Origin: Candidatus Latescibacterota bacterium
GTDB lineage: Bacteria; Latescibacterota; UBA2968; UBA8231
NCBI GenBank assembly: GCA_965223905.1
Contig: CBDCXV010000009.1
Coordinates: forward strand, 224,001 to 288,000
Length of the DNA stretch: 64,000 bases
Direction of reading: 5' to 3'
The notes beneath the pieces were generated by a model that searched no databases, was not told the origin of the DNA, and worked only from the letters and a program-made list of their open reading frames with translations. Below, one piece after another: positions 32,831-58,561 of this stretch. The translations under genes were made by a program, and so were the position numbers. How positions within the stretch are numbered: position 1 is the first letter of the stretch; each line of letters begins with the position of its first letter.

Positions 32831-32911
32831 CAAGGTGCCATCGCCGAGGCGTTATCGGATGTGGATGGATTGCTCTCGGCGTTGGAGGAGCTGATCGCCA
32901 AGAAGCGGGCC
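32831..32911 (+). repeat. Orphan hsdS central conserved-region fragment
   Basis: 72/81 nt identical to 34793-34873; QGAIAEALSDVDGLLSALEELIAKKRA vs QRAITEALSDVDKLLAALEALIAKKRA. Confidence 0.9.
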
Positions 32912-32932
32912 TGTAGATTGCGGAGCGGTGCG

Positions 32933-34202: not shown

Positions 34203-34303
34203 CTATGAGTCCAACGTTCGATTTGGGGAGTCGCCCTGCTGGTCCGGAGACGGAGAAATCTGCAACAGGGTCGCGGATTTCCAGCAGCTTTGAGATTCAA
34301 CAA

Positions 34304-41700: not shown

Positions 41701-41901
41701 GGCACCGGGACGGATGTTGATGCCAGGGAGGCGCTGGCGCTGGCCCTTGATAGCGCTATTCGCTTGGTGAAGAAGGCGGACTGGCGTGGAAACCGATTCA
41801 AGGAGCGGGAGGTCCGCATCGCCATCAGGTCGGAAGTCGACGGCGACGAGGCCTTTACGGAGAAGATATTCGAGCTCGTAAAGAACCAACGGGAGTACTG
41901 A
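38746..41901 (+). CDS. hsdR: Type I R-M restriction subunit
   Basis: RPDLVLYVNG...ELK nuclease motif, HTQGSGKS, DECHR, GFTGTP, LLTGFDAP, QAICRVNR. Confidence 0.97.
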   Translation: MSNVGQREFHAQQRVVEFFRDSLRYAYLGRWQDRDINRNVEKGHLTRWLKRQGHGDEIIEKALYELDKAAALGGSKTLYEANREVYGLLRYGVKVQPGVGEQFVTVSLIDWTDPRNNDFGIAQEVTVFGENNRRPDLVLYVNGIALGVLELKRSTVSVAEGIRQNLDSQKKEFIQPFFATVQFLMAGNETEGLRYAVIGTPEKHWLRWKETEVDPDAGDSPLLRELGQLCKKERLLEIIHDFLVFDSGDKKICRHNQYFGVKAAQERVKRREGGIIWHTQGSGKSLTMVWLAKWIREHVTDPRVLLITDRTELDEQIEAVFKGVSEDIHRTSSGADLVRVLNSPDEWLIGSLIHKFGASEEISEKDIEAYVDEIGKNLPRGFHPKGEIFVFVDECHRTQSGKLHEAMKALLPGAMLIGFTGTPLLKEDKKRSIETFGTYIHTYKYDEAVSDGVVLDLRYEARDIDQSIASQDRIDQWFDLKTRGLTDVAKAQLKQRWGTMRRVLSSRERLEKIVADILFDMETRDRLESGRGNALLVSDSIYSACRFFERFQEHGLAGRCAIVTSYRPATRDTKGEETGEGLTEKLLQYEAYRKMLAAHFNEPEEKAMRKVETFEKEVKRRFIDEPGQMKLLIVVDKLLTGFDAPSATYLYIDKHMQDHGLFQAICRVNRLDGEDKEYGYIIDYKDLFRSLEKSIEDYTGEAFEGYDKEDVEGLLKDRLKQGRERLEEAREAVKGLCEPVEPPRDTAAYLRFFCAAESGNTEQLKENEPKRVALYKLAAAFLRAYANLANEMCEAGYSDAEAREIKAEVDHYEKVRQEVKLASGDYIDLKLYEPAMRHLLDTYIRAEESEKVSAFDDLTLVQLIVERGEKAVDELPEGIRRHPEAVAETIENNVRRLIIDEMEVNPRYYEKMSELLDDLIRQRRQEAMDYKAYLKRIIELTRNVGRPEAEQSYPAAINTAALRSLFDNLEEAHAWAWREKASKDYGTGTDVDAREALALALDSAIRLVKKADWRGNRFKEREVRIAIRSEVDGDEAFTEKIFELVKNQREY

Positions 41902-41902
41902 C

Positions 41903-42625
41903 GTGGAACGTCAGCAAATCGAAGTGCGCGGCATCTCCGTGGAGGTCGTCCGCAAGGATATCAAGAACCTCCATGTGGGGGTTTACCCCCCGGCGGGCCG
42001 GGTGCGGGTGGCTGCGCCGTTGCGTCTTGACGACGGCACCCTGCGGCTGGCGGTCATCTCACGCCTGGGATGGATTCGTCGGAGGCGGGCGGAGTTCGCG
42101 CAACAGGACCGCCAGTCCCAGCGGGAGATGGTGACCGGCGAGAGCCATTACTTCAGGGGCAGGCGCTACCGGCTCGACGTGATCGACCACGACGGCATGC
42201 CTCGCATTCGCCTGGTCAACAACACCAGAATGGAACTGCGCACACGTCCGGGCGATGACCGGGACGCCCGGGAGGCCGTGCTTCACCGGTGGTACCGCCG
42301 CCAGCTGCGAGGCGAATTGCCGCGGCTTCTGGACAAGTGGGAAAGGACGGTCGGCGTGACCGTGGACGAGGTGCGGATCAAGAGGATGAAAACCCGCTGG
42401 GGCTCCTGCAATGCCGATGCCCGGCGCATCTGGCTGAACCTCGAGCTGGCCAAGAAGCCGGCATCCTGCCTGGCGTACATCCTCGTGCATGAAATGGTCC
42501 ACCTGATCGAGCGCAGTCACAACGACCGGTTCCGGGACCTGATGGATCAATTCATGCCTCAGTGGCATCTGCACAGGGACGAGCTCAATCGCGCCCCGCT
42601 CGCTCACGAAGACTGGTTATACTGA
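41903..42625 (+). CDS. M48/YgjP-family zinc metallohydrolase
   Basis: MKTRWGSC, YILVHEMVHL (HExxH); typical hsdR neighbour. Confidence 0.88.
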   Translation: MERQQIEVRGISVEVVRKDIKNLHVGVYPPAGRVRVAAPLRLDDGTLRLAVISRLGWIRRRRAEFAQQDRQSQREMVTGESHYFRGRRYRLDVIDHDGMPRIRLVNNTRMELRTRPGDDRDAREAVLHRWYRRQLRGELPRLLDKWERTVGVTVDEVRIKRMKTRWGSCNADARRIWLNLELAKKPASCLAYILVHEMVHLIERSHNDRFRDLMDQFMPQWHLHRDELNRAPLAHEDWLY

Positions 42626-43576: not shown

Positions 43577-44777
43577 ATGGCCCTGGAGAAATTCACCATC
43601 TCGCGGGACGACGGCGTGTACGAGTGCTTCCCGCACCTGTGCCTGACCCGGAGCGGCCGCATCCTCCTGGCGTACCGGGAGAGCAACGGCCACGTCGCCA
43701 GCGAGTTCTGCCGCCTCGTGCTTCGCCACAGCGACGACGCCGGGCGCACCTGGTCCGAACGCTTCGTGCTCCGCGACGAGGCTTACGAGAACGGCGTCCT
43801 GACCAAGTGGAACTGCCCGAAGATCCAGCAGCTGCGCGACGGCCGCGTCCTGCTTCTGTGCGACGCCATCGACTTCCCCCCCGGAGAGTGGAACGCCACC
43901 GCGGGCAACGCCCGCATCGTGCTCTGGTTCAGCAACGACGACGGGGCGTCCTGGTCGGAGGGGTTCGCAACCAGCGTCAACGGCATCTGCCCCGACGTCG
44001 TCACCGAGCTGGCGGACGGCACCTGGCTGCTGGCGGCCAACACCTACGCCGACGGCATGCGGCGCGTCGTTCAGAACATCTCGGCGAGCGCCGACCAGGG
44101 GCGGACCTGGGGACCTCCGCGCGACATCTGCCCCGACCCGGACTACCGCCTCGCCGAGGCCAGCGTCATCGCCTGCCCGGACGGCGAGCTGGTCGTCTAC
44201 CTGAGGGAGGAGTCGGGTAAGGGCCGGCCGCTGCAGAAGATGATTTCGAGGGACGGCGGCCGTTCCTGGGAAGGCCCGTTCGACACCCTCAACCCGGCCG
44301 CCCACGGCATGCCGGTCGCGGGTGTTACCCGGGACCGGCTGGTGCTGACCCTGGGCCGTTTCAGCCTGCGCTCGAGCTGGCGCGTCGACATGAGCGCGGA
44401 GACCGTGCGCCGGCGCCTGGAGACACGCACCATCGTCGTCCCCAACGTGCCCGAGAACGCCGCTTTCCGCAGCCGCCTGAAACCGGGGCCGGGCACCCGC
44501 ATCGACGACGACGAGATCGTCATCGCGGGGGGGCGGGACTCCTCCTCACACCTTCGCCTTCCTCGAACCATTGGCCAGCGCCCTCGAAGCGGACCTCGAC
44601 AGGCAGGACGGCCTGCTGCTCCCCCTGGACCACGACCGCAACAACATCAGCTGCGACAGCGGCTATACCGGCTGGGTCGAGTACGAGCGCGGCCGCTTCC
44701 TCGCCGCCAATTACATCAACGACGACGCCCCCATGGCCCAGATCCGGGGCTACCGCTTCGGAGTCGAGGATTTCTAA
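43577..44777 (+). CDS. Sialidase/BNR (Asp-box) family protein, frameshift in a G run near 44530
   Basis: Asp boxes SDDAGRTW, SNDDGASW, SADQGRTW, SRDGGRSW; C-terminal DSGYTGW in the shifted frame. Confidence 0.8.
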
Positions 44778-44823
44778 GGTGCCTTCGCGCCCAGGGTGGG
44801 GCGGGAAACCGCGTCAGGAGGGG

Positions 44824-47376
44824 ATGCAGCCGCAGCCCGCGGGCAAGGCCCGGCAGGAACCGGCACCTTCCAGCCCGACAGGGAACCTGAAGCTCTACGC
44901 GACGGCCGCCGCACTGGGTCTGCTGGCCCTGCTGCTGTTCGTCCACCAGTACACGACCATGGCCCGGTTCGGCGTCTTTCCGCCGGGAATAACCTTTGGA
45001 ACACCTTCCAATTTCCTGTCGGAGAGTTTTAAACACATAGGATTCAGCTCCCTGGACTACTCGCTTCTCGCCGCGATAGCCTGCCTGTTTCTGGCGCTGG
45101 TGATCGCGGAATTCCGCGGCGGCTGCTTTTCCGCCCTTCTCCGGGCGGCCTTCACCAGCGAATTCCGGACGATCACACTCCTGACAATCTGCGGTATCGT
45201 GGCCGTTCGATTTTACCTCGGCTCAGGTGAGTTCCCCTGGGGGGGGGATCAGCAGCAGCACATTTGTTTCGCGCACATGGCCTCGCGCTCGATATCCGAG
45301 GGGGAGCTGCCGATCTGGACCAACTACCTCGGCGCGGGCACTCCATACCTGCAGTTTTACGGCTTCCTGTTCTTCTATTTCGTAGCGCTGATTGACCAGC
45401 TCTGGAACGACGTGTTCACGTCGCTGAAAGTCGCGATGGGGGTTCTGCACGCTGCTTCCGGTGTGGCTATGTACCTGCTGGCGCGAACCCTGACGCGCTC
45501 GCGGAAGGCGGGCTTCATCGCCGGCCTGGCCTACGTGCTGAGCTTCTGGCATACCCAGCAGATCATCATCATGGGCCGCTTCCCGCTGTCGCTGTTCTAC
45601 GCCCTGCTTCCCCTGCCCTTCTACTTCTTCGAGCGCATGTGGAGTCCTGGAATTACGAAGAATCGGGAAAGACTGGCGGACAGTCTGGCTGGCGGGATCT
45701 GCCTGGGAGCCCTGGTCCTGACCCATCCCGGTTACGGCTTCTGGGCGACCGTTCTGCTGGGGGTGTTCGTGGGCTTGCGGTTGTTGCTGAAGATTCCGTT
45801 CAGCGAGCGCCCTGGTCTGGTCGGATGGTCCGCGGTCCTCTTTGCTGGCGGCTTGATCTTCGGGGGGTACCTGACCCTGCCGATGTGGCTCGAGCGGGAG
45901 CATACCGCACTCTACCGGGGTATGCTGGATCTCTCGGGGATCCCCCTCCCGACGTGGCAGCAGGTGCTGTCCTGGTCGAACTACCGTTTCTGGGTGCTGC
46001 CGCCACCCGATCTGCACCTCAACTGGTACGGCGGATATCTCGGACTGTCGCTCGCAGGTGTCGTCGCCTCCGGCATGGCCACCGCTCTCGGCAGCCGCTC
46101 TCGAGAGCTGATCCTCCGGTCTTTGCCCGCCCTCTGCTGTCTGGCGTTGACGGTCCTCCTCGTATTCGGATACCGATGGTCGCCGTTTCAGTCCCTTCCC
46201 ATCGTGAAGATGATGGGAGCCGGCCGCTACCTGCTGTTCACCGTCTTCTTTCTCGCCCTTGCCGCGGGCCCGGCGGTTCAAGCGCTGATGATCCTTCTGC
46301 GGCCCAGGCGCTGGAGGGTTCCGGCTTCGACGCTGATTTTGTTCGTCATTGTAATTGATTTGGGCCCGGCGACGTTTCAGCAGTCGTACTCGAGACATCC
46401 ATCATACATCGATCCCGAAGTCGACGTTTGGGGGATCCCGTTGGAACTGTACAAGCCTCTGCGCGCTCGCGCAGACTCCATGGACCATATTGGAGAGCTG
46501 CCGGGTTACCGGGTGTTCTGGAGCAGCCCGGAGCACAGCTTTTTTCAAAAAGGTCAACTTTATTTCCATTCGAGGACGCCGATCCCAGAGGCGTTTCATC
46601 CGGGAAAGGTGAAAGCGGTCGCTACTTTCGTTGACCCGGTTGCTCGATACTTGTCGATAATGTTGGACCGGACTATAAGGGAGAAAATAGATCAGGAGGG
46701 CTATCCTGAAAGGTTTTTAAGTACCGATCGCCAAGTTGTCCGTTCTTCGCTCGCTATGCTGAATGTTAAATATCTCATCTTGTCTGATCCAGATGGACAA
46801 AGGACCCTAACTAACTTGGGAACTATAGGTCCGGTGCTAGTATCTCCCACAATTGTTCCCTTTCCCACACACGTCGAGACTGACTCGTTGGCTGTACGAA
46901 TAGGCGAGTTCGTGAGATCTAAGGAAATTGACGTCGATATCAAGGAGTTGACGGAACTTTACCGGACCCGATTTCTGGTTTTGAGCATGGGAATGGACCC
47001 GCAGTCCCGGGTGCGTGAGCGGATCTACGTTCTCGATGGAGGTGGCCGGTGGCTGGGCACGAATCCGGAGGTCGAGGTCTTCGAGCACATGGTGCGCACA
47101 CAGCGGGTCGACCTGAAGCTGCGGGTCAGCGAGGCCTGCTTCGCGCGCTTGGCCTACTCCTACTTCCCTTATCTGCGGGTCACCGTCGATGGCAGGGAGG
47201 TCGCCCCCATGCCCACCGCGGGGGGGTTCATGGCGGTGCATCTCGAGGCCGGCGAGCACGACCTGACCCTGGAGGCGGAGCTGTCGCCGCTGCGCCGGGG
47301 CCTTCTCGCGGTCAACCTGTTCTACCTGGGGGCAACGGCGTACATGTTCGCGAGCAACCGTCGGAGGAAGCGATGA
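44824..47376 (+). CDS. YfhO/PTPS-related GT-C-like membrane glycosyltransferase, copy 1
   Basis: Polytopic N-terminal region with GGDQQQH...LPIWTNYLGAGTPYLQFY; YfhO-like C-terminus YFPYLRVTVDGREV...GFMAVHLEAGEH; final TM and basic tail. Confidence 0.7.
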   Translation: MQPQPAGKARQEPAPSSPTGNLKLYATAAALGLLALLLFVHQYTTMARFGVFPPGITFGTPSNFLSESFKHIGFSSLDYSLLAAIACLFLALVIAEFRGGCFSALLRAAFTSEFRTITLLTICGIVAVRFYLGSGEFPWGGDQQQHICFAHMASRSISEGELPIWTNYLGAGTPYLQFYGFLFFYFVALIDQLWNDVFTSLKVAMGVLHAASGVAMYLLARTLTRSRKAGFIAGLAYVLSFWHTQQIIIMGRFPLSLFYALLPLPFYFFERMWSPGITKNRERLADSLAGGICLGALVLTHPGYGFWATVLLGVFVGLRLLLKIPFSERPGLVGWSAVLFAGGLIFGGYLTLPMWLEREHTALYRGMLDLSGIPLPTWQQVLSWSNYRFWVLPPPDLHLNWYGGYLGLSLAGVVASGMATALGSRSRELILRSLPALCCLALTVLLVFGYRWSPFQSLPIVKMMGAGRYLLFTVFFLALAAGPAVQALMILLRPRRWRVPASTLILFVIVIDLGPATFQQSYSRHPSYIDPEVDVWGIPLELYKPLRARADSMDHIGELPGYRVFWSSPEHSFFQKGQLYFHSRTPIPEAFHPGKVKAVATFVDPVARYLSIMLDRTIREKIDQEGYPERFLSTDRQVVRSSLAMLNVKYLILSDPDGQRTLTNLGTIGPVLVSPTIVPFPTHVETDSLAVRIGEFVRSKEIDVDIKELTELYRTRFLVLSMGMDPQSRVRERIYVLDGGGRWLGTNPEVEVFEHMVRTQRVDLKLRVSEACFARLAYSYFPYLRVTVDGREVAPMPTAGGFMAVHLEAGEHDLTLEAELSPLRRGLLAVNLFYLGATAYMFASNRRRKR

Positions 47377-47420
47377 CCTTCATGCCTGTCCCGAGGCAGA
47401 AGTGCGTTTGATCCGGACCT

Positions 47421-47468
47421 GATCGGCAAACGCTTCTCAGTCGAGGATTTCAAAGTGCCTTCGCGCGC
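47421..47468 (+). repeat. Degenerate copy of the sialidase 3' end plus downstream leader, ahead of GT-C copy 2
   Basis: cgcttctcagtcgaggatttcaaagtgccttcgcgc vs 44754 cgcttcggagtcgaggatttctaaggtgccttcgcgc. Confidence 0.8.
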
Positions 47469-47499
47469 CAGGCGGAAGAAGAAACCGCCCAGGGAGGGG

Positions 47500-50064
47500 A
47501 TGCAGCCCCGCCCGGATTCAGGGCAGGCGCGGCAGGAGCCGGTACCTGCCGTCCCGACGGAAACCCGGAAGCTCTACGCCGCAGCCGCCGCACTGGGGCT
47601 GCTGGCCCTGCTGCTGTTCGTCCACCAGTACACGACCATGGCGCGGTTCGGGGTCCTCCCGCCGGGCCAGCGGTTCCTGAGCTATTCAGATTTCCTGGTA
47701 ATTGCCTTCGGGAAAATCCAGTTCGGTCCGCTGGACTACCTGCTGCTCGCCGCGATTGCCGGCCTCTTCCTTTCGCTGGTGATCGCCGAATATCGAGGCG
47801 GCCTCCTGAGCGCACTGCTGCGCAGGGTGTTCACCAGCGAAGGCTGGACGATCGGTCTGCTCGCAGCGGGTGGTCTCGTCGCGGTCCGGTTTTACCTCGG
47901 CGTCGGTGACTTCCCGTGGGGGGGAGATCAGCCGCAACACATCTGCTTCGCGCAGATGGCCTCCCGCTCGCTATCCGAGGGTGAGCTGCCGATCTGGACG
48001 AACTACCTCGGCGCGGGCACGCCGCACCTGCAGTTCTACGGCTTCCTGTTCTTCTATTTCGCAGGGCTGATCGACCAGCTCTGGAACGACGTGTTCACGT
48101 CGCTGAAGGTCGCGATGGCGGTTCTGCATGTCGCTTCCGGAGTGGCGATGTACCTGCTGGCCCGCACCCTGACGCGCTCGCGGAGAGCCGGCTTCATCGC
48201 CGCCCTGGCTTACGTGCTGAGCTTCTGGCATACCCAGCAGATCATCATCATGGGCCGCTTTCCCCTGTCCCTTTTCTACGCCCTGCTCCCCCTGCCGTTC
48301 TACTTCTTCGAGCGGCTGTCGAGTCCCCGCCTCGCGGAAAATCGGGTCAGGCTGGCGAGCAGTCTGGCGGGGGGGATCTGCCTCGGCGCCTTGGCCCTGA
48401 CCCACCCGGGCTACGCTTTCTGGGCAACCGTCCTGCTGGGGGTGTACGTGGGATTGCGGCTGATGATCCTGCTGCGCGCGGATCGCAGCCGGACCGACCT
48501 GGTCTGGTGGTCCGCGCTCCTCTTCGCCGGAGGCTTGGTCTTCGGGGCGTACCTGATCCTGCCGATGTCGCTCGAGCGCGACTATACCGGGCTCTACCTC
48601 GGCATGATGGATTTCGCGAAGGTGCCGATCCCGACATGGCAGCACGTGCTGGCCTGGTCCAACTACCGCTTCTGGGTGCTTCCGCCGCCCGACCTCAAAG
48701 TCAACTGGTACGGCGGATATCTCGGACTGTCGCTGGTAATCGTCGTGGCCGGCGGAGTCGCGGCGGCCCTGCGCAGCCGCTCCCGCGAGCTGATCCTCCG
48801 GTCCCTTCCGGCGCTGTGCTGTCTGGGGTTGACGGCCCTCCTCGTCTTCGGGTACCTGTTGCCCCCGCTCCAGGCTCTTCCGGTGGTAAAGATGCTGGCC
48901 GCGGGCCGCTACCTGTTGTTCACCGTCTTCTTTCTGGCCCTTGCCGTCGGCCCGGCGTCGCAGGCGCTGATGATCCTTCTTCGGCGCAGGCGCCGGCGAG
49001 TCCCGGTGCCGACGCTGATACTGCTCGCCATGGCAATCGACCTCGGGCCGGCTACGTTCCAGCAGATGTACAATACACGGGATCCGGCACCCAACATGTT
49101 CCCGCAACTCCGCGCGCAGGCCGACTCCCTGAATGCGCAAGGGAAGCTGCCGAATCACCGGGTCCTCTGGAGCGGCTCCAGCCACAGCAAGTACTGGCTG
49201 AAAGGCAAGCTGTATTTCGAATCGCGGACCTCGAGCCCGGGTTCGTTTCATCCCGGGAGAGCGAGGGCGGTCGTCGACTTCGTGGAACCGATCGACCTCT
49301 ACGTGTCGAAGCTGGTCGAGACGGGGTATTTCGCGATCGACAACAGCGGCAATACCGGCCTGCAGGAGGGGGTACCCGAAACGATTTTCGGCCGCAGCCA
49401 CGGGGAGATCATCCTCGCCGGCCTGAGCATGATGGATGTCAGGTATCTCATTCTGTCAAATCTCGATGAACAGATGAGGATCAGCGACATGAGCGACTTC
49501 GGTACCCATGGCCCAGTGCTCGTATCTCCGAGGGTCGTGCCGTTTCCCGCCGAACAGCTCGACCAACTCATCGCCAGCGGCGAACCATTCGAGACCATGG
49601 ACTCCAAGGGGGTCGACGCCGGTTTCACCCAGATGCTCATCGATTCCTACCACTCCCTTTTTCTGGCTGTTAACACCGGGGTCGATCTGAACAGCCGTGT
49701 GTGCGAGCGGATCTTCGTGCTCGACGCCGAGGGGCAAGAGCTGGGCACGAACCCGTCCCTCGAGGTTCTCGAGCACACGGTGCGCATGCAGCGAGTGGAC
49801 CTGAAGCTGCGGGTCAGCGAGGCCTGCTTCGCGCGCCTGGCGTACTCCTGTTTCCCGCATCTGCGGGTAACCGTCGACGACCGCGAGGTCGTCCCCCTGC
49901 GCACCGCGGGCGGGTTCATGGCGGTGCATTTCGTGGCGGGGGAGCACGAGCTGACCCTGGAGGCGGAGCTGTCGCCGCTGCGGCGGGGCCTGCTCGCCGT
50001 CAACCTGCTCTACCTTGCGGCAACGGCGTACCTGTTCGCAAGCAGCCGTAGAAGGAAGCGATGA
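47500..50064 (+). CDS. YfhO/GT-C-like membrane glycosyltransferase, copy 2
   Basis: Full-length paralog of copy 1 with the same motifs. Confidence 0.7.
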   Translation: MQPRPDSGQARQEPVPAVPTETRKLYAAAAALGLLALLLFVHQYTTMARFGVLPPGQRFLSYSDFLVIAFGKIQFGPLDYLLLAAIAGLFLSLVIAEYRGGLLSALLRRVFTSEGWTIGLLAAGGLVAVRFYLGVGDFPWGGDQPQHICFAQMASRSLSEGELPIWTNYLGAGTPHLQFYGFLFFYFAGLIDQLWNDVFTSLKVAMAVLHVASGVAMYLLARTLTRSRRAGFIAALAYVLSFWHTQQIIIMGRFPLSLFYALLPLPFYFFERLSSPRLAENRVRLASSLAGGICLGALALTHPGYAFWATVLLGVYVGLRLMILLRADRSRTDLVWWSALLFAGGLVFGAYLILPMSLERDYTGLYLGMMDFAKVPIPTWQHVLAWSNYRFWVLPPPDLKVNWYGGYLGLSLVIVVAGGVAAALRSRSRELILRSLPALCCLGLTALLVFGYLLPPLQALPVVKMLAAGRYLLFTVFFLALAVGPASQALMILLRRRRRRVPVPTLILLAMAIDLGPATFQQMYNTRDPAPNMFPQLRAQADSLNAQGKLPNHRVLWSGSSHSKYWLKGKLYFESRTSSPGSFHPGRARAVVDFVEPIDLYVSKLVETGYFAIDNSGNTGLQEGVPETIFGRSHGEIILAGLSMMDVRYLILSNLDEQMRISDMSDFGTHGPVLVSPRVVPFPAEQLDQLIASGEPFETMDSKGVDAGFTQMLIDSYHSLFLAVNTGVDLNSRVCERIFVLDAEGQELGTNPSLEVLEHTVRMQRVDLKLRVSEACFARLAYSCFPHLRVTVDDREVVPLRTAGGFMAVHFVAGEHELTLEAELSPLRRGLLAVNLLYLAATAYLFASSRRRKR

Positions 50065-50166
50065 CTTGGGTCAAGACACCAAGGGCAGAACAAACTCCCT
50101 CCTTTTCGGCAAAACGGTTCGGGGTCGATGGCTTTTCAATTGTGTGATGGAACACGGACCGGTTTG

Positions 50167-52641
50167 ATGCTCAATCGAAAATCGCTTTTTGCAACCGCAG
50201 CCTTGGGGATGCTGGCAGTTCTGCTGTACGTCCATCAGTACACGACCATGGCGCGGTTCGGCGTCTTTCCACCTGCCCGACGCTACAGAACCGTTTCGAG
50301 TTTCCTGTTGCAGGTTTTCGAGCACATCGAATTCACACTGCTCGACTACGCCTTGCTCACGGGGATAGCCGGCCTCTTCCTGGCGTTGCTGATCTCCGAA
50401 TTCCGGTACGGCTGCCTCACCGCCCTGCTGCGCGCTTTTTTCACCGGCGAACGCTTGACGATCGCCCTTCTCGCCATTGCCAGTCTCGTTGCGGTGAGGC
50501 ATTACCTCGGCCTCGGCAACTTCTCCTGGGGAGGCGACCAGCCGCAGCACATATGCTTCGCGCACATGGCCTCCCGTTCGATTGCCGAGGGAGAGCTGCC
50601 GATCTGGACGAACTACCTCGGCGCGGGCACGCCGTACCTCCAGTTCTATGGCTTCCTGTTTTTCTACCTGACCGGGCTCGTCGATCAGCTCCTGAACGAC
50701 ATTTTCTCCTCGTTGAAAGCTGTGATGGCTGTTCTGCACGTAGCCTCGGGGTTGGCTATGTACCTGCTCGCGCGCACCGTGACCGGCTCGCGGAAGGCGG
50801 GTTTCATCGCCGGCCTGGCCTACGTGCTGAGCTTCTGGCATACCCAGCAGATCATTATCATGGGCCGCTTCCCGTTGTCGCTCTTCTGGGCCCTGCTGCC
50901 CCTGCCATTCTACTTCTTCGAGCGCCTGTCGAGCCCTTGTCTCGCCGGGAATCAGGCAAGACTGGCCAGCAGTCTGGCGGGGGGGATCTGTCTGGGGGCC
51001 TTGGCCCTGACTCACCCCGGCTACGGCTTCTGGGTGACCGTCCTGTTCGGGCTGTATGCCGGCTTGCGGTTGTGGCTGAATATCCCGGCCAGCGAACGCC
51101 CCGGTCTGGCGGGATGGTCTGCGGTCCTCTTTTCCGGCGGCCTGGTCTTCGGGGGGTTCCTGACTCTGCCGATGTGGCTGGAGCGCGAGTATACGGGGCT
51201 GCACAGCAGCCTGGTGAACCTCTCTTCGATTCCCGTCCCTACGTGGCGGCACGTGCTGGCGTGGTCGAACTACCGCTTCTGGGCCCTTCCGCTGCCCGAC
51301 CTCGACTTCAATTGGTACGGCGGGTACCTCGGCCTGTCGCTGGTAATTGTCGTGGCGGGCGCAGCGGTTGTCGTACTGGGCAGCCGCTCCCGTGTGCTGA
51401 TCCTCAGGTCTTTGCCCGCCGTCTGTTGTCTTGCGTTGACGGTCCTCCTCGTTTTCGGATACCGGTGGTCGCCGTTGCAGTCCCTTCCCATCGTGAAGAT
51501 GATGGGAGCCGGCCGTTACCTGCTGTTCACGGTCTTCTTTCTCGCCCTTGCCGCGGGCCCGGCGGCCCAGGCGCTGATGGTCCTTCTCCGGCGCCGGCGC
51601 TGGAGGGTTCCCGTTTCGACCCTGATTCTGTGCGTCATCGCAGTCGACCTCGGGCCGACGACATTCCAACAGATGTACGTGACGCGAGATCAGCAAGCCA
51701 TGTTTCCGCAACTCCGCGAGTACTCCAGCTCCTTCGATGCGCAAGGAAAGCTGCCGAATCACCGGTTCCTCTGGACCGGAACCGGGCACAGTGGCTGGCG
51801 GAAAGGGAAGCTGTATTTCGAATCGCGAACTCCGAGCCCGGACACCTTTCATCCGGGAAGGGTCAGAGCCGCATCCGATTTTTTATCGCCGTTCGCCGAT
51901 TACTTTTCCGCGGTGTTGCACGAAATGCTCGGAGGGGGAACAAATGAGGAAGCTGACTTTCCTGGTACAGTCAGCGGCATCGACCATACGGAACTCGTCC
52001 GATCCGCGCTCTGCATGCTCGATATTAAATACCTCATGGTATCCGATTCTGATGGACAAACGGCCCTGAGTGACCTTGGGAATGAAGGTCCGGTACTCGT
52101 GTCTCCAACGATAATGGCCTTTCCCACTGAACGCCTCAATCGAATCGTCGCCTCAGGCGAACCAGCCGATTTCCTGAAAGCAGAGGGAGTAGACTCGACC
52201 TTTGCGGGAGTTCTCGTCGATTCGTACCCCACCCTGTTCCTTGTTGCGAACACCGGGGTAAACCCCATAACCCGGGTTTGCGAGCGGATCTTCGTGGTCG
52301 ACGCCGAGGGCCGGGAGCTGGGCACGAACCCGGAGGTCGAAGTCCTCGAGCACACGGTGCGCATGCAGCGGGTCGACATGAAGCTGCGGGTCACCGAGGC
52401 CTGCTTCGCCCGCCTGGCATACTCCTTCTTCCCCCATCTGCGCGTCGCCGTCGACGGCCGCGAGGTCGCCCCTCTGCGCACCGCCGGCGGGTTCATGGCG
52501 GTGCATCTCGAGGCGGGTGAGCACGACGTGACCCTTGAGGCGGAGCTGTCGCCGCTGCGGCGCGTCCTGCTCGCCGTCAACCTGCTCTACCTGACGGCAA
52601 CGGCGTACCTGTTCGTCGGCAACAGGCGAAGGAAGCGATGA
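50167..52641 (+). CDS. YfhO/GT-C-like membrane glycosyltransferase, copy 3
   Basis: Full-length paralog; start set at MLNRKS by analogy with copy 4 (MFNRKA). Confidence 0.7.
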   Translation: MLNRKSLFATAALGMLAVLLYVHQYTTMARFGVFPPARRYRTVSSFLLQVFEHIEFTLLDYALLTGIAGLFLALLISEFRYGCLTALLRAFFTGERLTIALLAIASLVAVRHYLGLGNFSWGGDQPQHICFAHMASRSIAEGELPIWTNYLGAGTPYLQFYGFLFFYLTGLVDQLLNDIFSSLKAVMAVLHVASGLAMYLLARTVTGSRKAGFIAGLAYVLSFWHTQQIIIMGRFPLSLFWALLPLPFYFFERLSSPCLAGNQARLASSLAGGICLGALALTHPGYGFWVTVLFGLYAGLRLWLNIPASERPGLAGWSAVLFSGGLVFGGFLTLPMWLEREYTGLHSSLVNLSSIPVPTWRHVLAWSNYRFWALPLPDLDFNWYGGYLGLSLVIVVAGAAVVVLGSRSRVLILRSLPAVCCLALTVLLVFGYRWSPLQSLPIVKMMGAGRYLLFTVFFLALAAGPAAQALMVLLRRRRWRVPVSTLILCVIAVDLGPTTFQQMYVTRDQQAMFPQLREYSSSFDAQGKLPNHRFLWTGTGHSGWRKGKLYFESRTPSPDTFHPGRVRAASDFLSPFADYFSAVLHEMLGGGTNEEADFPGTVSGIDHTELVRSALCMLDIKYLMVSDSDGQTALSDLGNEGPVLVSPTIMAFPTERLNRIVASGEPADFLKAEGVDSTFAGVLVDSYPTLFLVANTGVNPITRVCERIFVVDAEGRELGTNPEVEVLEHTVRMQRVDMKLRVTEACFARLAYSFFPHLRVAVDGREVAPLRTAGGFMAVHLEAGEHDVTLEAELSPLRRVLLAVNLLYLTATAYLFVGNRRRKR

Positions 52642-52756
52642 CCCTTCGGCACTGTCCAGGGGCACGGGGGAAAGTTGAATTCCGGTCAAGATCAGTGGCT
52701 GCTGATTTCGGGCCCCGGGATTCCCAGACTCGCGCTATCCACGGTAGTCCCGTCTG

Positions 52757-55264
52757 ATGTTCAATCGCAAAGCGCTTCCGGCAACCGCCGCACTCGGGCT
52801 GCTGGCCCTTCTGCTGTCCATTCACCAGTACACCACCATGGCGCGGTTCGGGGTATTTCCACCCGGCTCAAGGGCAAAAAACTTCTCGGATTTTCTGACG
52901 AGGACCTTCGAAGGCATCGAGTTCGGTCCGCTGGACTACACGCTGCTCGCCGCCATAGCCAGCCTCTTCCTTGCTCTGCTGATCGCGGAACTTCGTGGCG
53001 GCTGCCTGAGCGCCATGCTGCGTGCGGTTTTTTCTGGTGAACGCGGGACGGTCATCCTGCTCGCTGCCGCCGGTTTTGTCGCCGTCCGTGCCTATCTCGG
53101 TCTGGGTGAATTTTCCTGGGGGGCGGATCAACCGCAGCACATAAGCTTCGCTCACATGGCCTCGCGCTCGATATCCGAGGGAGAGCTGCCCATCTGGACC
53201 AACTACCTGGGCACGGGCACGCCGTACCTGCAGTTCTACGGCTTCCTGTTCTTCTATCTTGTGGGGCTCGTCGATCAGCTTTGGCAGGACGTTTTCCTGT
53301 CGCTGAAAGTAGTGATGGCGGTCCTGCACGTTGCCTCGGGTGTGGCGATGTACTTGCTGGCGAGGACCGTGACGCGCTCGCGGAGCGCCGGCTTCCTCGC
53401 CGGACTGGCTTACGTGCTGAGCTTCTGGCATTACCAGCAGATCAGCATTATGGGCCGCTTCCCGCTGTCGCTTTTCTACGCCTTGCTGCCCCTGCCTTTC
53501 TACTTCTTCGAGCGCCTGTCGAGTCTCCGTCCCGCCGCGAATCGGGAGAGACTGGCGAGCGCTCTGGCGGGTGGCATCTGCTTAGGCGCCCTGGCCCTGA
53601 CACATCCCGGCTACGGCTTCTGGGCTACCGTTCTGCTGGCAGTGTACATGGGCTTGCGCCTGTTGGCTATCCCTGGGCACCAACGCCGCGGCCTGATTTC
53701 GTGGTCCGTGTTCCTGTTCGCCGGAGGCCTGGTTTTCGGGGGGTACCTGACCCTGCCGATGTGGCTGGAACGCGAGCATACGGGGCTGCACAGCAGCTTG
53801 GTGAACCTCTCTTCGATTCCGGTCCCTACGTGGCGGCACGTACTGGCCTGGTCGAACTACCGTTTCTGGGTGCTACCCCCGCCCGACCTCGATGTCAACT
53901 GGTACGGCGGGTACGTCGGACTTTCCATCGCAACCGTGGTCGCCGCCGGGGCTGTCGCCACATTTCGCAGCCGCTCCCGGGCCCTGATCCTCCGGTCTTT
54001 GCCGGCCCTCTGCTGCCTCGGGATGACGGTCGTCCTCGTCTTCGGGTACCGGTGGGAGCCCCTTCAATCCCTGCCGGTTGTGAAGATGCTGAGCGCCGGA
54101 CGCTACCTGCTGTTCACGATCTTTTTTCTCACCCTTGCCGTGGGCCCGGCGTCGCAGGGGCTGATGGTCCTTCTCCGGCGCCGGCATTGGCGGGTTCCCG
54201 CGTCGACGGTGATTCTGCTGGCGATAGCCATCGACCTCGGCCCCACGACGTTTCAGCAGCCGTACTGGATACCGCCTCCGGGCATCGATACCGAACGCGA
54301 CATGTTCGGTCAATCCCTGGAGCTGTACAAGCCGCTGCGCGCCCAGGCCGACTCCCTGGACTTGCACGGGCAGTTGCCGGGTCATCGTTCGTTCTGGAGC
54401 AGCCAGGAGTATGGCTATTCCGTGAAAGGTCAACTGTACTTCCATTCGAGGACACCAATCCCCCAATCCTTTCATCCGGGAAAGGTCAGGGCTGCTGCCG
54501 ATTTCGTATCGCCGTTCGCCCAATACTATTCCGCTGTGTTGGGCCGAATGCTCGAAGGGAGAACGGGTGAGACTCTGACTTTCCCGGAGACGGTCTTTGG
54601 CATCGACCATCACGAGGTCGCCCGGTCCGCGTTCAGCATGCTCGGAGTCAAATTCCTCATGGTTTCCAATTCCGACGGACAAACGGCTCTGAGTGACTTG
54701 GGGACTGAAGGTCCAGTGCTCGTGTCTCGGACGATTCTGCCGTTTCCTGGTGAAAAGCTTGCCCAAATCACTGCCAGCGGGGAGCCAAACGATTTCCTGA
54801 AAGCAGAAGGAGCAGATTCGGCCTTTGCAAAGGTCCTTGTCGATTCGTATTACACCCTGTTCCTGATAGCGAACACCAGGGTCAATCCGCAAACCCGGAC
54901 GTGCGAGCGGATCTTCGTGCTCGACGCCGAGGGGCAGGAGCTCTGTACGAATCCGGCCGTCAAGCTCCTCGAGCACACCGTCCGCATGCAGCGGGTCGAC
55001 CTGAAGCTGCGGGTCAGCGAGGCCTGCTTCGCGCGCCTGGCGTACTCCTGGTTCCCGCATCTGCGGGTAACCGTCGACGACCGCGAGGTCGTCCCCCTGC
55101 GCACCGCGGGCGGATTCATGGCGGTGCAACTCGAGGCCGGCGAGCACGACCTGGTCCTGGAGGCGGAGCTCTCGCCGCTGCGGCGGGGTCTGCTTGCCGT
55201 CAACCTGGCCTGCCTGGCGGCGACGGCGTACCTGTTCGCGAGCAACCGGCGCAGGAAGCAGTGA
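52757..55264 (+). CDS. YfhO/GT-C-like membrane glycosyltransferase, copy 4
   Basis: Full-length paralog. Confidence 0.7.
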   Translation: MFNRKALPATAALGLLALLLSIHQYTTMARFGVFPPGSRAKNFSDFLTRTFEGIEFGPLDYTLLAAIASLFLALLIAELRGGCLSAMLRAVFSGERGTVILLAAAGFVAVRAYLGLGEFSWGADQPQHISFAHMASRSISEGELPIWTNYLGTGTPYLQFYGFLFFYLVGLVDQLWQDVFLSLKVVMAVLHVASGVAMYLLARTVTRSRSAGFLAGLAYVLSFWHYQQISIMGRFPLSLFYALLPLPFYFFERLSSLRPAANRERLASALAGGICLGALALTHPGYGFWATVLLAVYMGLRLLAIPGHQRRGLISWSVFLFAGGLVFGGYLTLPMWLEREHTGLHSSLVNLSSIPVPTWRHVLAWSNYRFWVLPPPDLDVNWYGGYVGLSIATVVAAGAVATFRSRSRALILRSLPALCCLGMTVVLVFGYRWEPLQSLPVVKMLSAGRYLLFTIFFLTLAVGPASQGLMVLLRRRHWRVPASTVILLAIAIDLGPTTFQQPYWIPPPGIDTERDMFGQSLELYKPLRAQADSLDLHGQLPGHRSFWSSQEYGYSVKGQLYFHSRTPIPQSFHPGKVRAAADFVSPFAQYYSAVLGRMLEGRTGETLTFPETVFGIDHHEVARSAFSMLGVKFLMVSNSDGQTALSDLGTEGPVLVSRTILPFPGEKLAQITASGEPNDFLKAEGADSAFAKVLVDSYYTLFLIANTRVNPQTRTCERIFVLDAEGQELCTNPAVKLLEHTVRMQRVDLKLRVSEACFARLAYSWFPHLRVTVDDREVVPLRTAGGFMAVQLEAGEHDLVLEAELSPLRRGLLAVNLACLAATAYLFASNRRRKQ

Positions 55265-55353: not shown

Positions 55354-57321
55354 CTACCAGTCGTGGACCCGGTGGCCCTCCACCGGAAACCAGATGACGT
55401 CGACCACTCCCGAAAGCACCACCGCCGCCACGTAGCCGATCCCCATGCCGTAGAAGAACGGCTTGCCGGCGCGGTAGGCGCGCGCGCCGCCGTAGCGGAG
55501 CAGGAGGAGCTTGGCGACCCAGACGAGGAAGAGGCTGAACCAGTAGATGCTGGTTCCCGCGGTGTGCTGGAACGCCAGCCCCATCGGGTGCAGCGGAAAC
55601 CAGTAGTAGCGGCCGCGCAGGAAAGCGAGCGCCGCGGCCTCGAAGAAGCCGGTGAGCCAGACGCCCCACTTGCCGGGATCGAACACGCGCGGGTTCTGGA
55701 TCAGGTGGGTGGTCTGGTCGTAGATCATTCTGAAGGCCCCCATCAGGTGGGTCGTGCCGCCGTGCTCGTAGGCGGTTTCGAGGCTGGCCCAGACTGCGAC
55801 CAGGAAGCCGGTGGGAAAGGCGACGAGCACCGCGGCGATCACGCGGCCCGGCTGCTCCCGCAGCGAGAAGATGCGGAAGTGGTGGGGCAGCGCCGGCCAC
55901 GCCGGCAGCCGGATGTTTCCGAAGAAGGCGTTGCCGGTGAACATCTTGAAGGCCACCACCTGCTGCGTCGAGAGCCGCGACGACCCGATCAGGTCGGTGA
56001 TCAGCGACTCCCCCTTGGCGTGGGCCCAGTTCGGCATCAGGTAGGGGAACCCGGTGGCCGCAATCAGCTTGACGACCACGAAGAAGGAGATCGCCATGGC
56101 GCCGAAGGCGATGACGGCCACCGGCAGGCTGGCCCCGAGGTGGATCCCCCAGGCGACGACGGCGGCTCCGGAAAGCACCAGGCCGGCCGAGGCCAGGCGG
56201 TAGCGCCGCACGTCCGCCCGGTCCCCCTCGCCAAAGCGCACCTGGCGCCACACCTCCTTCAGGTGCCGGCGCGCCAGCCAGACCGACCAGGCGGCGACGA
56301 AGACCATGGCGCCGTAGCTCTCCATCGACAGGATCTCCGCCCCCCGCATCTGCTGGCCCGACTCACCGACCTCGAAGCCGACGGCGTCGAGGCCCCCGAG
56401 CTTGACGACCGACAGCAGGTAGAACAGCACCAGGCTGCCGAGGATGTCCAAGGGGCACAGGTAGGTCACCGCGAGAACGAACGGCAGGACGCGGAAGCTC
56501 AGTCCCGGGAACGGCTGCGGCAGGGTTATGCCCATATGCCGCGTGTAGAGGATGAACTCCGGCAGGCCGAGGAAGAAGAAGGTGGCGACGTTGTAGAGCA
56601 GCGGCAGGAAGACGACGCCGAATCCGCCCCAGAAGAGCCGCGAGCGGAACAGGTCCGGCATGCGGCCGGCGCCGTCGAAGCCCCGGGTCATGTCGAGCGG
56701 CATCTGCGCCAGGGGAAAGCTCAGCTTCTCGGCCTCGACCCACTGGCGCTGGAAGAGGATCACGAGGCAGATGCCGAACAGGAGCATGGCCGCCGACGCC
56801 GCCAGCCACTGCAGGGTCACTCCGATCCAGCCGTCCCAGGGCAGCGGGGCCCCTTTGGGCAACCCCATCCAGAAGTTGCCGATCACCCGGGGAGTCGCTT
56901 CCGGCAGGGCGTGCCAGGGCAGGTAGGGCAGCAGCAGGTCGGCCCACTGGTTCTCGGGGGTGGCCATGTACCCGGGGGCGGCGACGATGGCGATCCAGTA
57001 GTCGCTCCAGCCCCACTGCGGCAGCGCCCCGACGATCCAGAGCATGCTGAAAACGGTCAGCAGCTCCCCCCGGGTCAGGGCCAGGCGCGGCCACAGGCGC
57101 TTGAGGAGGACGTTGGCGAACAGCCACATCACGAACGGCATCAGCGCCACCATCGGGAACTGCGAGCGCACGTAGCTGCCCGAGCCCGAGGTGTGCCCCA
57201 CCATCAGGATGAGATAGGTGAACTGGCCGGCGATGGTCAGGGCGCCGGCGAGGATGCCGCGCAGGGTGATGCGCAGGCTGGCGCCCTCGTCCGCGGCGCG
57301 CGTGCGGGGCTCTTCAGTCAC
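55354..57321 (-). CDS. DUF6785/DUF6784-type polytopic membrane protein (second paralog)
   Basis: YMATPENQW, RQWVEAEKLSFP, WFPLHPMG...PFFYG; GTG start. Confidence 0.72.
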   Translation of the reverse strand: MTEEPRTRAADEGASLRITLRGILAGALTIAGQFTYLILMVGHTSGSGSYVRSQFPMVALMPFVMWLFANVLLKRLWPRLALTRGELLTVFSMLWIVGALPQWGWSDYWIAIVAAPGYMATPENQWADLLLPYLPWHALPEATPRVIGNFWMGLPKGAPLPWDGWIGVTLQWLAASAAMLLFGICLVILFQRQWVEAEKLSFPLAQMPLDMTRGFDGAGRMPDLFRSRLFWGGFGVVFLPLLYNVATFFFLGLPEFILYTRHMGITLPQPFPGLSFRVLPFVLAVTYLCPLDILGSLVLFYLLSVVKLGGLDAVGFEVGESGQQMRGAEILSMESYGAMVFVAAWSVWLARRHLKEVWRQVRFGEGDRADVRRYRLASAGLVLSGAAVVAWGIHLGASLPVAVIAFGAMAISFFVVVKLIAATGFPYLMPNWAHAKGESLITDLIGSSRLSTQQVVAFKMFTGNAFFGNIRLPAWPALPHHFRIFSLREQPGRVIAAVLVAFPTGFLVAVWASLETAYEHGGTTHLMGAFRMIYDQTTHLIQNPRVFDPGKWGVWLTGFFEAAALAFLRGRYYWFPLHPMGLAFQHTAGTSIYWFSLFLVWVAKLLLLRYGGARAYRAGKPFFYGMGIGYVAAVVLSGVVDVIWFPVEGHRVHDW

Positions 57322-57451
57322 GGAACGGGTGTCGCAATCGAAGGTCCGGTTGCATAGATTGGCCAGCCTTCGCCGGGGCAGGGGTCGCAGGAGCGAGGAG
57401 TTCCGTTCCAATTCCGGCGGTCCCGAACGAGGATACTCAACCGGAGGATAC

Positions 57452-58561
57452 ATGCCGAAGAATACAGTACTCGAACCGGGGGTTCCCGCTGAGACCGGGC
57501 TTTCGGCCGAGCGCCTGGAGCGGGCCGCCGGCCTGCTGCAGGCGGCCCTGGAGGAAAGGGCGATTTCGGCTGCGTCGATCGCGGTCGCCAGGAGGGGAAG
57601 GCTGGTCCTTTCCCGGGGGTTCGGCCACCTGCAGCCGCGCGACGGCTCCCAGGAGGTGCAGCCGGATTCGATTTTCCTCCTCGCCTCGATCAGCAAGCCG
57701 GTGGCCGCCTGCAGCGTCATGCAGCTCGTCGACTGCGGCCTCGTCTCCCTCGACGACCCCGTCAACCTCCACATCCCCGAGTTCATCGGCTGGGAGCGGG
57801 CCAAGATACGCGTCTCCCACCTGCTGTCCCACGTCTCGGGGATGCCGGACATGCTCCCGGAGAACGTCCCCCTGCGGCGGGCGCACGCGCCGCTCAGCGC
57901 CTTCGTCGAAGGGGCGATCCGGACGCGGCTGCTCTACGAGCCCGGGACCTCGTTCCGCTACCAGAGCAAGGGGATCCTGCTGGCGGCCGAGATCGTCGAG
58001 CGCGTCACCGGCGAGCGCCTGCGCGACTTCCAGGAGCGCGAGCTGTTCGCGCCGCTGGGGATGAATCGGAGCGCCCTCGGGCTCGGCGGCTTCGCCATCC
58101 CCGACACCGTCTGGTGCGGCACCACAATGGATGAGGGCGACGAGGCGAAGAGCTGGGGGCAGAACAGCCCCTACTGGCGCGACCAGGGCCACCCCTGGGG
58201 CGGCATGCACAGCTCGGCGACCGACCTCGCGGCGCTGCTGCAGACCGTCCTCAACCGCGGCTCCTACGGCGATGCCGAGGTCTTCAGCGCGGCCGCCTGC
58301 GCGGCGATGACGGCGAACCGGAACCGCCACCTCGACGCCCCCTGGGGCCTCGGCTGGGCGCTGCGCGACTCCAAGGTCTGGAGCTTCTTCGGCGAGCTGG
58401 TGTCGGAGGGAACCTTCGGGCACGTCGGCGCCACCGGGACCGTGGCCTGGGCCGACCCCGAACGCGACCTGGTCTGCGTCGTGCTCACCAACCAGATGGT
58501 GGCCGGCGGCAGCCTGTTGAGGCGGGTGTCGAACGCCGTCGCCGCGGCGGTGGCCGACTGA
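57452..58561 (+). CDS. Serine hydrolase, beta-lactamase family
   Basis: ASISK (SxxK), LLSHVSG, PGTSFRYQS, FGHVGATG. Confidence 0.9.
   Translation: MPKNTVLEPGVPAETGLSAERLERAAGLLQAALEERAISAASIAVARRGRLVLSRGFGHLQPRDGSQEVQPDSIFLLASISKPVAACSVMQLVDCGLVSLDDPVNLHIPEFIGWERAKIRVSHLLSHVSGMPDMLPENVPLRRAHAPLSAFVEGAIRTRLLYEPGTSFRYQSKGILLAAEIVERVTGERLRDFQERELFAPLGMNRSALGLGGFAIPDTVWCGTTMDEGDEAKSWGQNSPYWRDQGHPWGGMHSSATDLAALLQTVLNRGSYGDAEVFSAAACAAMTANRNRHLDAPWGLGWALRDSKVWSFFGELVSEGTFGHVGATGTVAWADPERDLVCVVLTNQMVAGGSLLRRVSNAVAAAVAD

Follow-up and report, generated by a model that had tools for sequence, protein, structure and literature searches.

How do four neighbouring genes come to resemble each other in patches, so that the closest partner of a copy changes along its length? 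This question is raised by a 64,000-nucleotide stretch of DNA from a Candidatus Latescibacterota bacterium (assembly GCA_965223905.1, contig CBDCXV010000009.1, positions 224,001 to 288,000), which is called the window throughout, and in which four paralogous genes for membrane proteins, g1 to g4, whose products are predicted to have the GT-C glycosyltransferase fold, lie in tandem. A sequence-only reading of the window had taken them for a gene-conversion or shuffling array that diversifies the acceptor-recognition domains of YfhO-like surface glycosyltransferases. In this study, which was based on alignments, recombination tests, structure prediction and a comparison with related genomes and public contigs, we consider it likely that they form an old tandem array of a Latescibacterota GT-C family in which short-tract gene conversion homogenises the membrane core and the C-terminus. 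Most of the evidence points to a passive process, with no sign of a dedicated shuffling machine or of a diversification device.

Mosaic structure of the four copies

The array consists of four intact open reading frames (ORFs) in tandem on the + strand, which are paralogs of 835-869 amino acids (aa), as had been claimed; the start at 44824 that was given for the first of them is the first ATG inside the g1 ORF.

44779..47376, + strand: g1 (copy 1), 865 aa from the GTG at 44779, first ATG at 44824; membrane protein with a predicted GT-C fold
47455..50064, + strand: g2 (copy 2), 869 aa; the type common to the single-copy genes of both congeneric genomes (G001 and G002, see below)
50128..52641, + strand: g3 (copy 3), 837 aa; the copy used for the structure model
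52757..55264, + strand: g4 (copy 4), 835 aa; has a 79%-identical relative, P0006, from another organism

The proteins of g2, g3 and g4 are 67-68% identical to that of g1 and can be aligned end to end with several hundred invariant columns, while the pairwise DNA identity is 73-77% for every pair. A tblastn search of the whole 7.9-Mb assembly with g3 returned g1-g4 as the only matches (E <= 1e-5), and no partial or silent copies were present, all four copies being full-length.

Every change of partner that had been listed from the sequence was found in the protein alignment and in sliding windows of the codon alignment, and mismatch counts bore out the two coordinate pairs. The closest pair is 1+2 at the N-terminus and at LWNDVFTSLK, and 3+4 at GLHSSLVNLSSIPVPTWRH. 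Positions 46141-46275 of g1 and 51430-51564 of g3 differ by six mismatches in 135 nt. After TFQQ the copies group as 1+4 versus 2+3, and after FHPG the closest pair is 3+4. Towards the 3' end, 49798-49913 of g2 and 54998-55113 of g4 show one mismatch in 116 nt, where the other five pairs show 14-18. The anchors DLGP.TFQQ, FHPG, GPVLVS and ERI.V.D, which had been proposed to bound the variable modules, are invariant or almost so. Among 194 quartet-informative ungapped sites, 79 favour 12|34, 64 favour 13|24 and 51 favour 14|23, which is close to a star, and these sites are strongly clustered: 109 pairs of neighbouring informative sites agreed compared with 65.8 +/- 6.5 after shuffling, a number that none of the 10,000 shuffles reached. 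Similarly, a pairwise homoplasy index (PHI)-like statistic was 0.619 compared with 0.660 +/- 0.007 in shuffled alignments and was reached in 0 of 2000 shuffles. In approximately unbiased (AU) tests of the three quartet trees, the other two trees were rejected in six of the eight blocks, of which three favour 12|34, two favour 13|24 and the remaining one, at alignment columns 1620-1800, favours 14|23 (p 7.6e-5); these p-values are optimistic, as the blocks were picked after the sliding windows. Since all three topologies win in some block, one tree does not fit all of the segments and the mosaic is recombinational.

To locate the exchanged tracts, 1024 polymorphic sites were scanned in the manner of GENECONV, using a score that tolerates mismatches and 2000 permutations; six fragments had a global p <= 0.05. 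A test of runs without mismatches was weaker (three runs at global p <= 0.05) and the mismatch-tolerant score was used in its place.

44889..44955 / 47568-47634, + strand: tract shared by g1 and g2, 67 nt, 94%, p 0.004; conversion or young duplication
45360-45434 / 48039-48113, + strand: tract shared by g1 and g2, 75 nt, 94.7%, p 0.004; conversion or young duplication
51195..51252 / 53782-53839, + strand: conversion tract shared by g3 and g4, 58 nt, 96.6%, p 0.001
46145..46276 / 51434-51565, + strand: conversion tract shared by g1 and g3, 132 nt, 96.2%, score reached in 0 of 2000 shuffles
49801..49911 / 55001-55111, + strand: conversion tract shared by g2 and g4, 111 nt, 99.1%, p 0.0005
49701-49736 / 54901-54936, + strand: conversion tract shared by g2 and g4, 36 nt, 100%, p 0.04

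All six significant tracts fall in conserved segments, where they make the copies more alike. The idea of a gene-conversion or shuffling array is therefore supported for the conversion mosaic but not for the shuffling of modules.

Synonymous divergence

The synonymous divergence (dS, Nei-Gojobori) between the paralogs is uneven, ranging from 0.06 to 0.7 in the conserved segments and from 1 to 2.6, which is saturated, in the periplasmic part. This difference in coalescence depth indicates that the common ancestor of the core and the C-terminus is much younger than that of the periplasmic part, as is expected of concerted evolution by conversion. In the orthologous pair that is formed by g2 and the single-copy gene of the congeneric genome G002, dS is even (core 0.40, periplasmic part 0.35, C-terminus 0.27), and the low dS of the paralogous core is thus not due to protein-level constraint alone. 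Moreover, the segment that contains the longer g2/g4 tract has a dS of 0.06, which is lower than that of the orthologous flanking genes (0.14-0.20); the tract is hence younger than the split from G002, and conversion is recent or ongoing. The ratio of nonsynonymous to synonymous divergence (dN/dS) did not reach 1 in any segment. For the variable part it was 0.2-0.6, so that the check per module that had been suggested gave, at a coarse level, no excess of replacements.

The variable periplasmic domain

The part of the copies that is not homogenised is a single domain, which both the model of g3 and a separate model of the periplasmic part place outside the membrane, as had been assumed for the variable modules.

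46363..46983 (g1), 49045-49671 (g2), 51652-52248 (g3), 54239-54871 (g4), + strand: variable periplasmic segment
46393-46569 (g1), + strand: first sub-module, grouping 1+4 versus 2+3
46570-46983 (g1), + strand: second sub-module, grouping 3+4, with g1 and g2 each apart

The tree switches at FHPG, from 14|23 before it (AU p 7.6e-5 for the other trees) to 3+4 after it (p 0.026). This is the sole recombination signal inside the variable domain, and one old exchange is enough to explain it, given that the relative P0006 carries the sub-module combination of g4. Most simply, that exchange built g3 from a g2-like first and a g4-like second sub-module.

The variable modules had also been described as AT-richer. 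In terms of the G+C content at third codon positions (GC3), this is clear for g1, g3 and g4 (0.55, 0.60 and 0.66 in the variable domain compared with 0.79-0.82 in their cores) and weak for g2 (0.78 compared with 0.86). The variable part of the G002 gene has a GC3 of about 0.76 and the neighbouring genes 0.82-0.93, while windows of equally low GC3 were found in 15.7% of the long high-GC3 frames of this genome. GC-biased gene conversion was considered as a cause of the dip and set aside, because it leaves the high GC3 of the g2 variable domain unexplained.

Protein family and fold

The best Pfam match of g1-g4 was PF10131 (PTPS_related), of which only the first half of the model was matched; g1 (28.7 bits) and g2 (30.1 bits) score above the gathering cut-off of 26.4, and g3 (24.0 bits) and g4 (23.4 bits) below it. 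The same family is precomputed on most of the relatives, the distant ones being named '6-pyruvoyl-tetrahydropterin synthase-related protein' by NCBI, and it comprises 781 cluster representatives at E <= 0.001. According to the accessible part of PMC7801869, PF10131 belongs to the Pfam clan GT-C and its function is unknown; a literature search on PF10131 or on such arrays returned this one mention, as 'function unknown', in the texts as far as they were accessible. The YfhO family (PF09586, cut-off 28.5 bits) was not reached: g1 and g3 scored 12.1 bits at residues ~770-830, with about 30 C-terminal residues matched, and no match was listed for g2 and g4. The description 'YfhO-like' is accordingly true of the general plan only and not of membership, the family being PF10131. 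There were no NCBIfam families for five proteins and no PADLOC families for g1-g4 and both of their direct neighbours. In an Atlas look-up, the neighbouring clusters carry PF10131, YfhO, DUF6541 and GT-C_AftD, and the nearest cluster carries PF10131.

An AlphaFold2 model of g3, which was built from an alignment of 58 family members, was confident (pLDDT 93, pTM 0.93). In this model, a membrane domain of many helices extends to about residue 512 and is followed by an alpha/beta region that ends near residue 720; residues 721-805 form a beta-sandwich and residues 809-836 the last membrane helix. A Foldseek search of the PDB using this model gave 28 matches at E <= 0.001, and those listed are all GT-C enzymes or complexes that hold one, with AglB at 1.2e-7 and AftD, PglB, STT3/OST, AftA, ArnT, Pmt4 and DPY19 among the others. 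A profile of the 58 family members that was run against PDB sequences found a chance match only (E 0.54, an unrelated chain). The GT-C fold that the sequence-only reading had proposed is thus borne out at the level of the model. When modelled alone, the periplasmic part (pLDDT 84.6) was most similar to the soluble part of mycobacterial AftD (Z 8.6, 217 aligned residues, rmsd 4.6; next match Z 4.6). Its first half has a weak likeness to the periplasmic domains of DPY19, AglB, STT3, PglB and AftA (Z 2.6-4.1), and for the beta-sandwich the similarity is to C-terminal domains of glycoside hydrolases (Z 3-4.6). Additionally, the Asp of the motif WG[GA]DQ.QH is invariant in g1-g4 and in 58 of the 58 aligned family members, and this residue, which lies in an early loop of the membrane domain, is a candidate catalytic acid.

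50536..50538, + strand: codon of the invariant Asp, D137 in g3; the same codon starts at 45247 in g1, 47926 in g2 and 53126 in g4

Relatives and copy number

A peptide-pattern scan of genome collections found one relative only, a Candidatus Latescibacterota bacterium, and a match was present in 30 of the 61 related genomes. Across the phylum, 58 of 168 genomes had a match at 1e-100 or better, and adjacent copies occurred only in this genome (G000) and in G119. A metagenome scan gave 10 loci, all at <=44% identity, and no second array. Both genomes of the same genus, G001 and G002, carry a single gene at this locus, which there too lies between the BNR and DUF6785 genes, and their flanks are 91-95% identical to the window. 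In the DNA of the periplasmic part, the identity of these single genes is 73-94% with g2, compared with 43-84% with g1, g3 and g4; for g2 and the G002 gene the nucleotide identity there is 80-94%. At the 5' end they are closest to g1, and over a stretch towards the 3' end they are closest to g3. The single-copy orthologue of G001 (L022:10568-13182) is split into two frames near L022:12340, by a frameshift or a sequencing error.

Trees of the core and of the periplasmic part were calculated (quick IQ-TREE runs, LG+G4, 35 rows consisting of the array copies, the G002 gene and 30 hand-picked full-length representatives among the best matches). In these trees, g1-g4, the G002 gene and P0006 form one clade (SH-aLRT 99 for the core and 100 for the periplasmic part), with g2 as the sister of the G002 gene and g4 paired with P0006 in both. 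As these pairings lie within one clade, the four types are older than the species of this genus and yet belong to one lineage, and a distant horizontal transfer of the extra copies is ruled out by the single clade in both trees. The periplasmic part is covered by 17 close relatives, of which 14 are nearest to g2, one (P0006) is nearest to g4, two are equidistant and none is nearest to g1 or g3. Two sequences that were considered as new variants, P0016 and P0156, proved to be frameshifted readings of g1 and g4 from another assembly. Further multi-copy loci may exist, with P0159 and P0165 both on 78,780-base contigs and P0172 and P0014 both on 73,505-base contigs. At G167:C5:331995-334391, a homologue lies inside an open frame of 1740 aa, which may be a fusion with another domain.

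Spacers and flanking genes

The spacers between the copies are 78, 63 and 115 nt long. When the four junctions were aligned with the region upstream of the G002 gene, remnants of the 3' end of the upstream BNR gene were seen in all three.

47377..47454, + strand: g1-g2 spacer, well-kept BNR 3' relic (last ~40-60 nt)
50065-50127, + strand: g2-g3 spacer, more degenerate BNR 3' relic
52642-52756, + strand: g3-g4 spacer, more degenerate BNR 3' relic
43577..44777, + strand: BNR/Asp-box (BNR_2) beta-propeller gene directly upstream of g1, Pfam BNR_2 4.1e-13
55354..57852, - strand: DUF6785+DUF6784 membrane protein, bounds the array on the right and is syntenic in both G001 and G002

These relics appear to mark the repeat unit of a tandem duplication and fit the repeated duplication of one unit. 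Judged by its G002 orthologue (399 aa, C-terminal GVEDF*), the BNR gene has its true stop at the TAA at 44775-44777, two bases before the g1 ORF. In the assembly it carries a 1-nt frameshift near 44527-44531, where the tblastn match breaks at residue 318/319. The contigs of all four public runs are one base shorter at 44527-44531, in X3 for part of the depth only, and the frameshift is probably an assembly indel error or a polymorphism. A BNR gene as the neighbour of a GT-C gene was seen in the same genus only. On the other side, genes of the beta-lactamase, aldo-keto reductase and enolase superfamily types follow the DUF6785/DUF6784 gene. G001 has two more DUF6785+DUF6784 paralogs, ~29% identical (L022:1392-5400), a few kb upstream of its GT-C gene.

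Just upstream of the array lies a type I restriction-modification cluster.

29889-32327: HsdM, type I restriction-modification cluster
32861-34186: Schlafen/AlbA_2 ATPase (AlbA_2 + HATPase_c_4), between hsdM and hsdS
34205-35521: HsdS, type I restriction-modification cluster
37605-38753: HATPase_c_4 + winged-helix protein, extra gene within the cluster, before hsdR
38746-41901: HsdR, type I restriction-modification cluster
41903-42625: YgjP-like peptidase, after hsdR

The proximity of a defence island that had been noted is therefore real, but the same cluster also flanks the single-copy GT-C gene of G002, which makes its nearness to the array uninformative. Compared with G002, the hsdS region is poorly conserved and hsdR is 94.8% identical. 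Dedicated machinery was looked for in a Pfam scan of 20 chosen neighbouring ORFs within 22-61 kb, among which there was no recombinase or reverse transcriptase and no GT2- or GtrA-type partner gene. The best inverted repeat was 33 nt at 76%, which is not convincing, and a scan for promoters and terminators found fewer sites than in shuffled sequences and was uninformative on transcription units.

Representation of the array in public contigs

Short contigs from public runs were aligned to 43.5-56.5 kb in 30 bins, with the contig-derived depth serving as a rough measure. Run X3 covers 30 of the 30 bins, and eight of its pieces are listed with 0-3 mismatches, seven of them with none. At 47240 and 47246, in the 3' part of g1, an X3 contig reads other letters at full depth (11.4/11.4); this contig may come from a paralogous place, or the window may have two base errors. 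Parts of g3 and g4 are also matched without a mismatch by contigs of run X5, which comes from another study and has a depth of 4-5 there. Contigs that cross the junction from g3 into g4 occur in X3 (0 differences), X5 (21) and X1, a run labelled as a sponge metagenome (34). With bridging contigs in three runs from three studies, the array is not solely a product of assembly. Runs X1 and X2 share few sampled words with the genome (0.09 and 0.07). In X5 and X8, which belong to other studies, the depth is high over the flanks and g2 (about 20-70) and low over g1, g3 and g4 (0-12), the uncovered parts in X8, as in X1, carrying no evidential weight; an X8 contig of depth 20 joins the end of a gene directly to the downstream flank (52639->55353). 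This suggests that single-copy populations of the g2 type outnumber array carriers in the X5 and X8 samples.

Origin and maintenance of the array

The anatomy of the locus, the fold, the mosaic, the unequal coalescence depth of the two parts of the gene and the variation in copy number can be joined as follows. A unit made up of the GT-C gene and a few dozen bases from the 3' end of the upstream BNR gene would have been duplicated in place. General homologous recombination between the copies, in the form of short-tract ectopic gene conversion (tracts of about 40-130 nt), would then repeatedly overwrite parts of the membrane core, of the conserved beta-sandwich at the C-terminus and of the anchor helix, which would keep the core and the C-terminus alike and yield a mosaic with changing partners. 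The periplasmic alpha/beta domain would be too diverged for frequent conversion, so that four old types are kept, with at least one older exchange at the FHPG anchor that recombined two sub-modules; breakpoints at anchors are an ordinary outcome of homologous recombination. Unequal recombination would alter the copy number, the related genomes carrying a single gene of the g2 type. As to function, each copy is most likely an enzyme that takes a sugar from a polyprenyl-phosphate carrier and passes it to an envelope acceptor at the outer face of the inner membrane. The copies most likely differ in the acceptor or the linkage, a choice that is most likely set by the periplasmic domain.

Several points weigh against this reading of an old array homogenised by conversion. 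Two of the eight AU blocks were not significant, in addition to the optimistic p-values of the others, and the high GC3 possibly compresses the dS of the core. With four sequences, conversion within the array is indistinguishable from recombination with imported alleles of related strains. The adjacent pair in G119 is 59% identical and has no near-identical tracts, and conversion is consequently not typical of the family as a whole. In g1, g3 and g4, the low GC3 of the variable domain fits a foreign or recent origin better than a long residence. No public contig of any run spans the array, the linkage of four copies comes from one assembly, and X3, the best-matching run, may be its source sample. 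Finally, g3 and g4 stay below the Pfam cut-off, the PF10131 family is without a characterised member and there were 0 RNA runs among the public runs.

Some of these points speak for the main rival as to the origin of the array, in which a single locus had diverged into the alleles g1, g3 and g4, which circulated among related strains, were stacked by unequal homologous recombination through the conserved core, and underwent conversion afterwards; it would leave the reading of the mosaic unaffected, and we regard it as rather unlikely. The GC3 of the variable domains of g1, g3 and g4 is below that of g2, the G002 gene and the neighbouring genes, the dS between g2 and the G002 gene is 0.37, twice that of the flanking genes, each of the two congeneric genomes has one copy, and the run labelled as a sponge metagenome has contigs that are 5-8% off g3 and g4 and almost none for g1 and g2. 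However, contigs of X1 and X5 bridge g3 and g4, which thus already adjoin each other in other populations; the decay of the g2-g3 and g3-g4 spacers is too advanced for a recent stacking, the BNR relics in the spacers fit an in-place duplication equally, and the GC3 dip is not rare in this genome. That the array or its near-identical tracts were created by chimeric assembly or by paralogous mis-polishing is very improbable. It is true that the genome is metagenome-assembled (11 contigs, 5% contamination), that there is a probable 1-nt indel error just upstream of g1, that another assembly contains frameshifted versions of g1 and g4 and that the array is unspanned. Against this, the copies differ by ~25% overall, which is too far apart for assembly confusion, tracts with 2-5 mismatches and a module sharing of 70-85% are unlike polishing, and the X3 contigs over all bins, the zero-mismatch X5 contigs on parts of g3 and g4 and the junction bridged in three runs agree with the assembly.

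A selected combinatorial diversification, in which the exchange of sub-modules at the anchors creates new acceptor specificities under phage or host pressure, is quite unlikely in our view. It would be in keeping with the tree switches inside the variable domain at FHPG, with the periplasmic location of the variable part, with a copy number that varies between close relatives, with the invariant residues kept in all four copies and with the nearby restriction-modification cluster. The six significant tracts, however, all make conserved segments alike, the pattern of the variable domain is explained by one old exchange, and a dN/dS of 0.2-0.6 there shows no excess of replacements at a coarse level. 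Furthermore, the ORFs and sequence that were scanned contained no recombinase, reverse transcriptase, cassettes or convincing inverted repeats, none of the 17 relatives is nearest to g1 or g3, that is, new combinations were not seen elsewhere, PADLOC gave no match for the array copies and the restriction cluster flanks the single-copy gene of G002 too. It is likewise unlikely that the genes are a natural domain-swapping set for envelope glycosylation, in which strains of a Latescibacterota lineage, with near relatives in the run labelled as a sponge metagenome, gain, lose and recombine copies and swap sub-modules at the TFQQ, FHPG and GPVLVS anchors. If this were true, each strain would show different glycan decorations, driven by phages or hosts, and the low GC3 seen in three of the variable domains would be a sign of modules moving from strain to strain. 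Whichever origin applies, g1-g4 are natural variants that have almost the same membrane core but each a different periplasmic domain, g3 looking like a hybrid of two others, and the array lends itself to the question of which part of such an enzyme picks the acceptor.

Comparison with known systems

The GT-C enzymes that have a C-terminal periplasmic domain (AglB/PglB/STT3, AftD, AftA and ArnT) share the membrane fold with the array proteins (Foldseek E 1e-7 to 1e-4), and AftD has the soluble part that is most like their periplasmic domain (Z 8.6). GT-C enzymes have a conserved acidic catalytic residue in an early extracytoplasmic loop, to which the invariant Asp in the early loop of g1-g4 may correspond. 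The identity in structural alignments with the solved GT-C chains is 7-15%, with no match at the sequence level, and, compared with the solved enzymes, g3 ends with a beta-sandwich that is followed by a final C-terminal membrane helix. In overall plan YfhO appears similar to g1-g4, with many helices in its core, a large outer domain and one more membrane helix at the end. YfhO is the GT-C enzyme of the CsbB/GtcA/YfhO route of teichoic-acid glycosylation in Firmicutes, as described in the accessible parts of PMC5836110 and PMC8035078. The GT2- and GtrA-type partners of that route are absent from the ORFs that were scanned in 22-61 kb here. Moreover, the source organism is presumably a diderm-type member of the Latescibacterota without teichoic acids.

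With programmed systems, such as pilin- and opa-type cassettes, shufflons and diversity-generating retroelements, the array has in common that several related sequences lie at one locus and that the variation is concentrated in an exposed domain. It differs from them in that all of its copies are full-length and intact, and in that the scans found no recombinase, reverse transcriptase or template repeat. A closer parallel is offered by families that undergo concerted evolution. The tuf genes are an example of gene conversion between bacterial paralogs. Gene conversion among bacterial paralogs has also been described for PE_PGRS and other families of Mycobacterium tuberculosis (accessible parts of PMC6053082, PMC13061034 and PMC12046097). 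As in such families, the array has short near-identical tracts, a changing closest partner and a lowered dS in the converted parts, and it would be a clear case, in an uncultured phylum, of conversion that homogenises one part of a protein while another part escapes, with no new kind of mechanism. Unlike those examples, it consists of four GT-C enzymes in which one domain escapes homogenisation, and its copy number varies between congeneric genomes.

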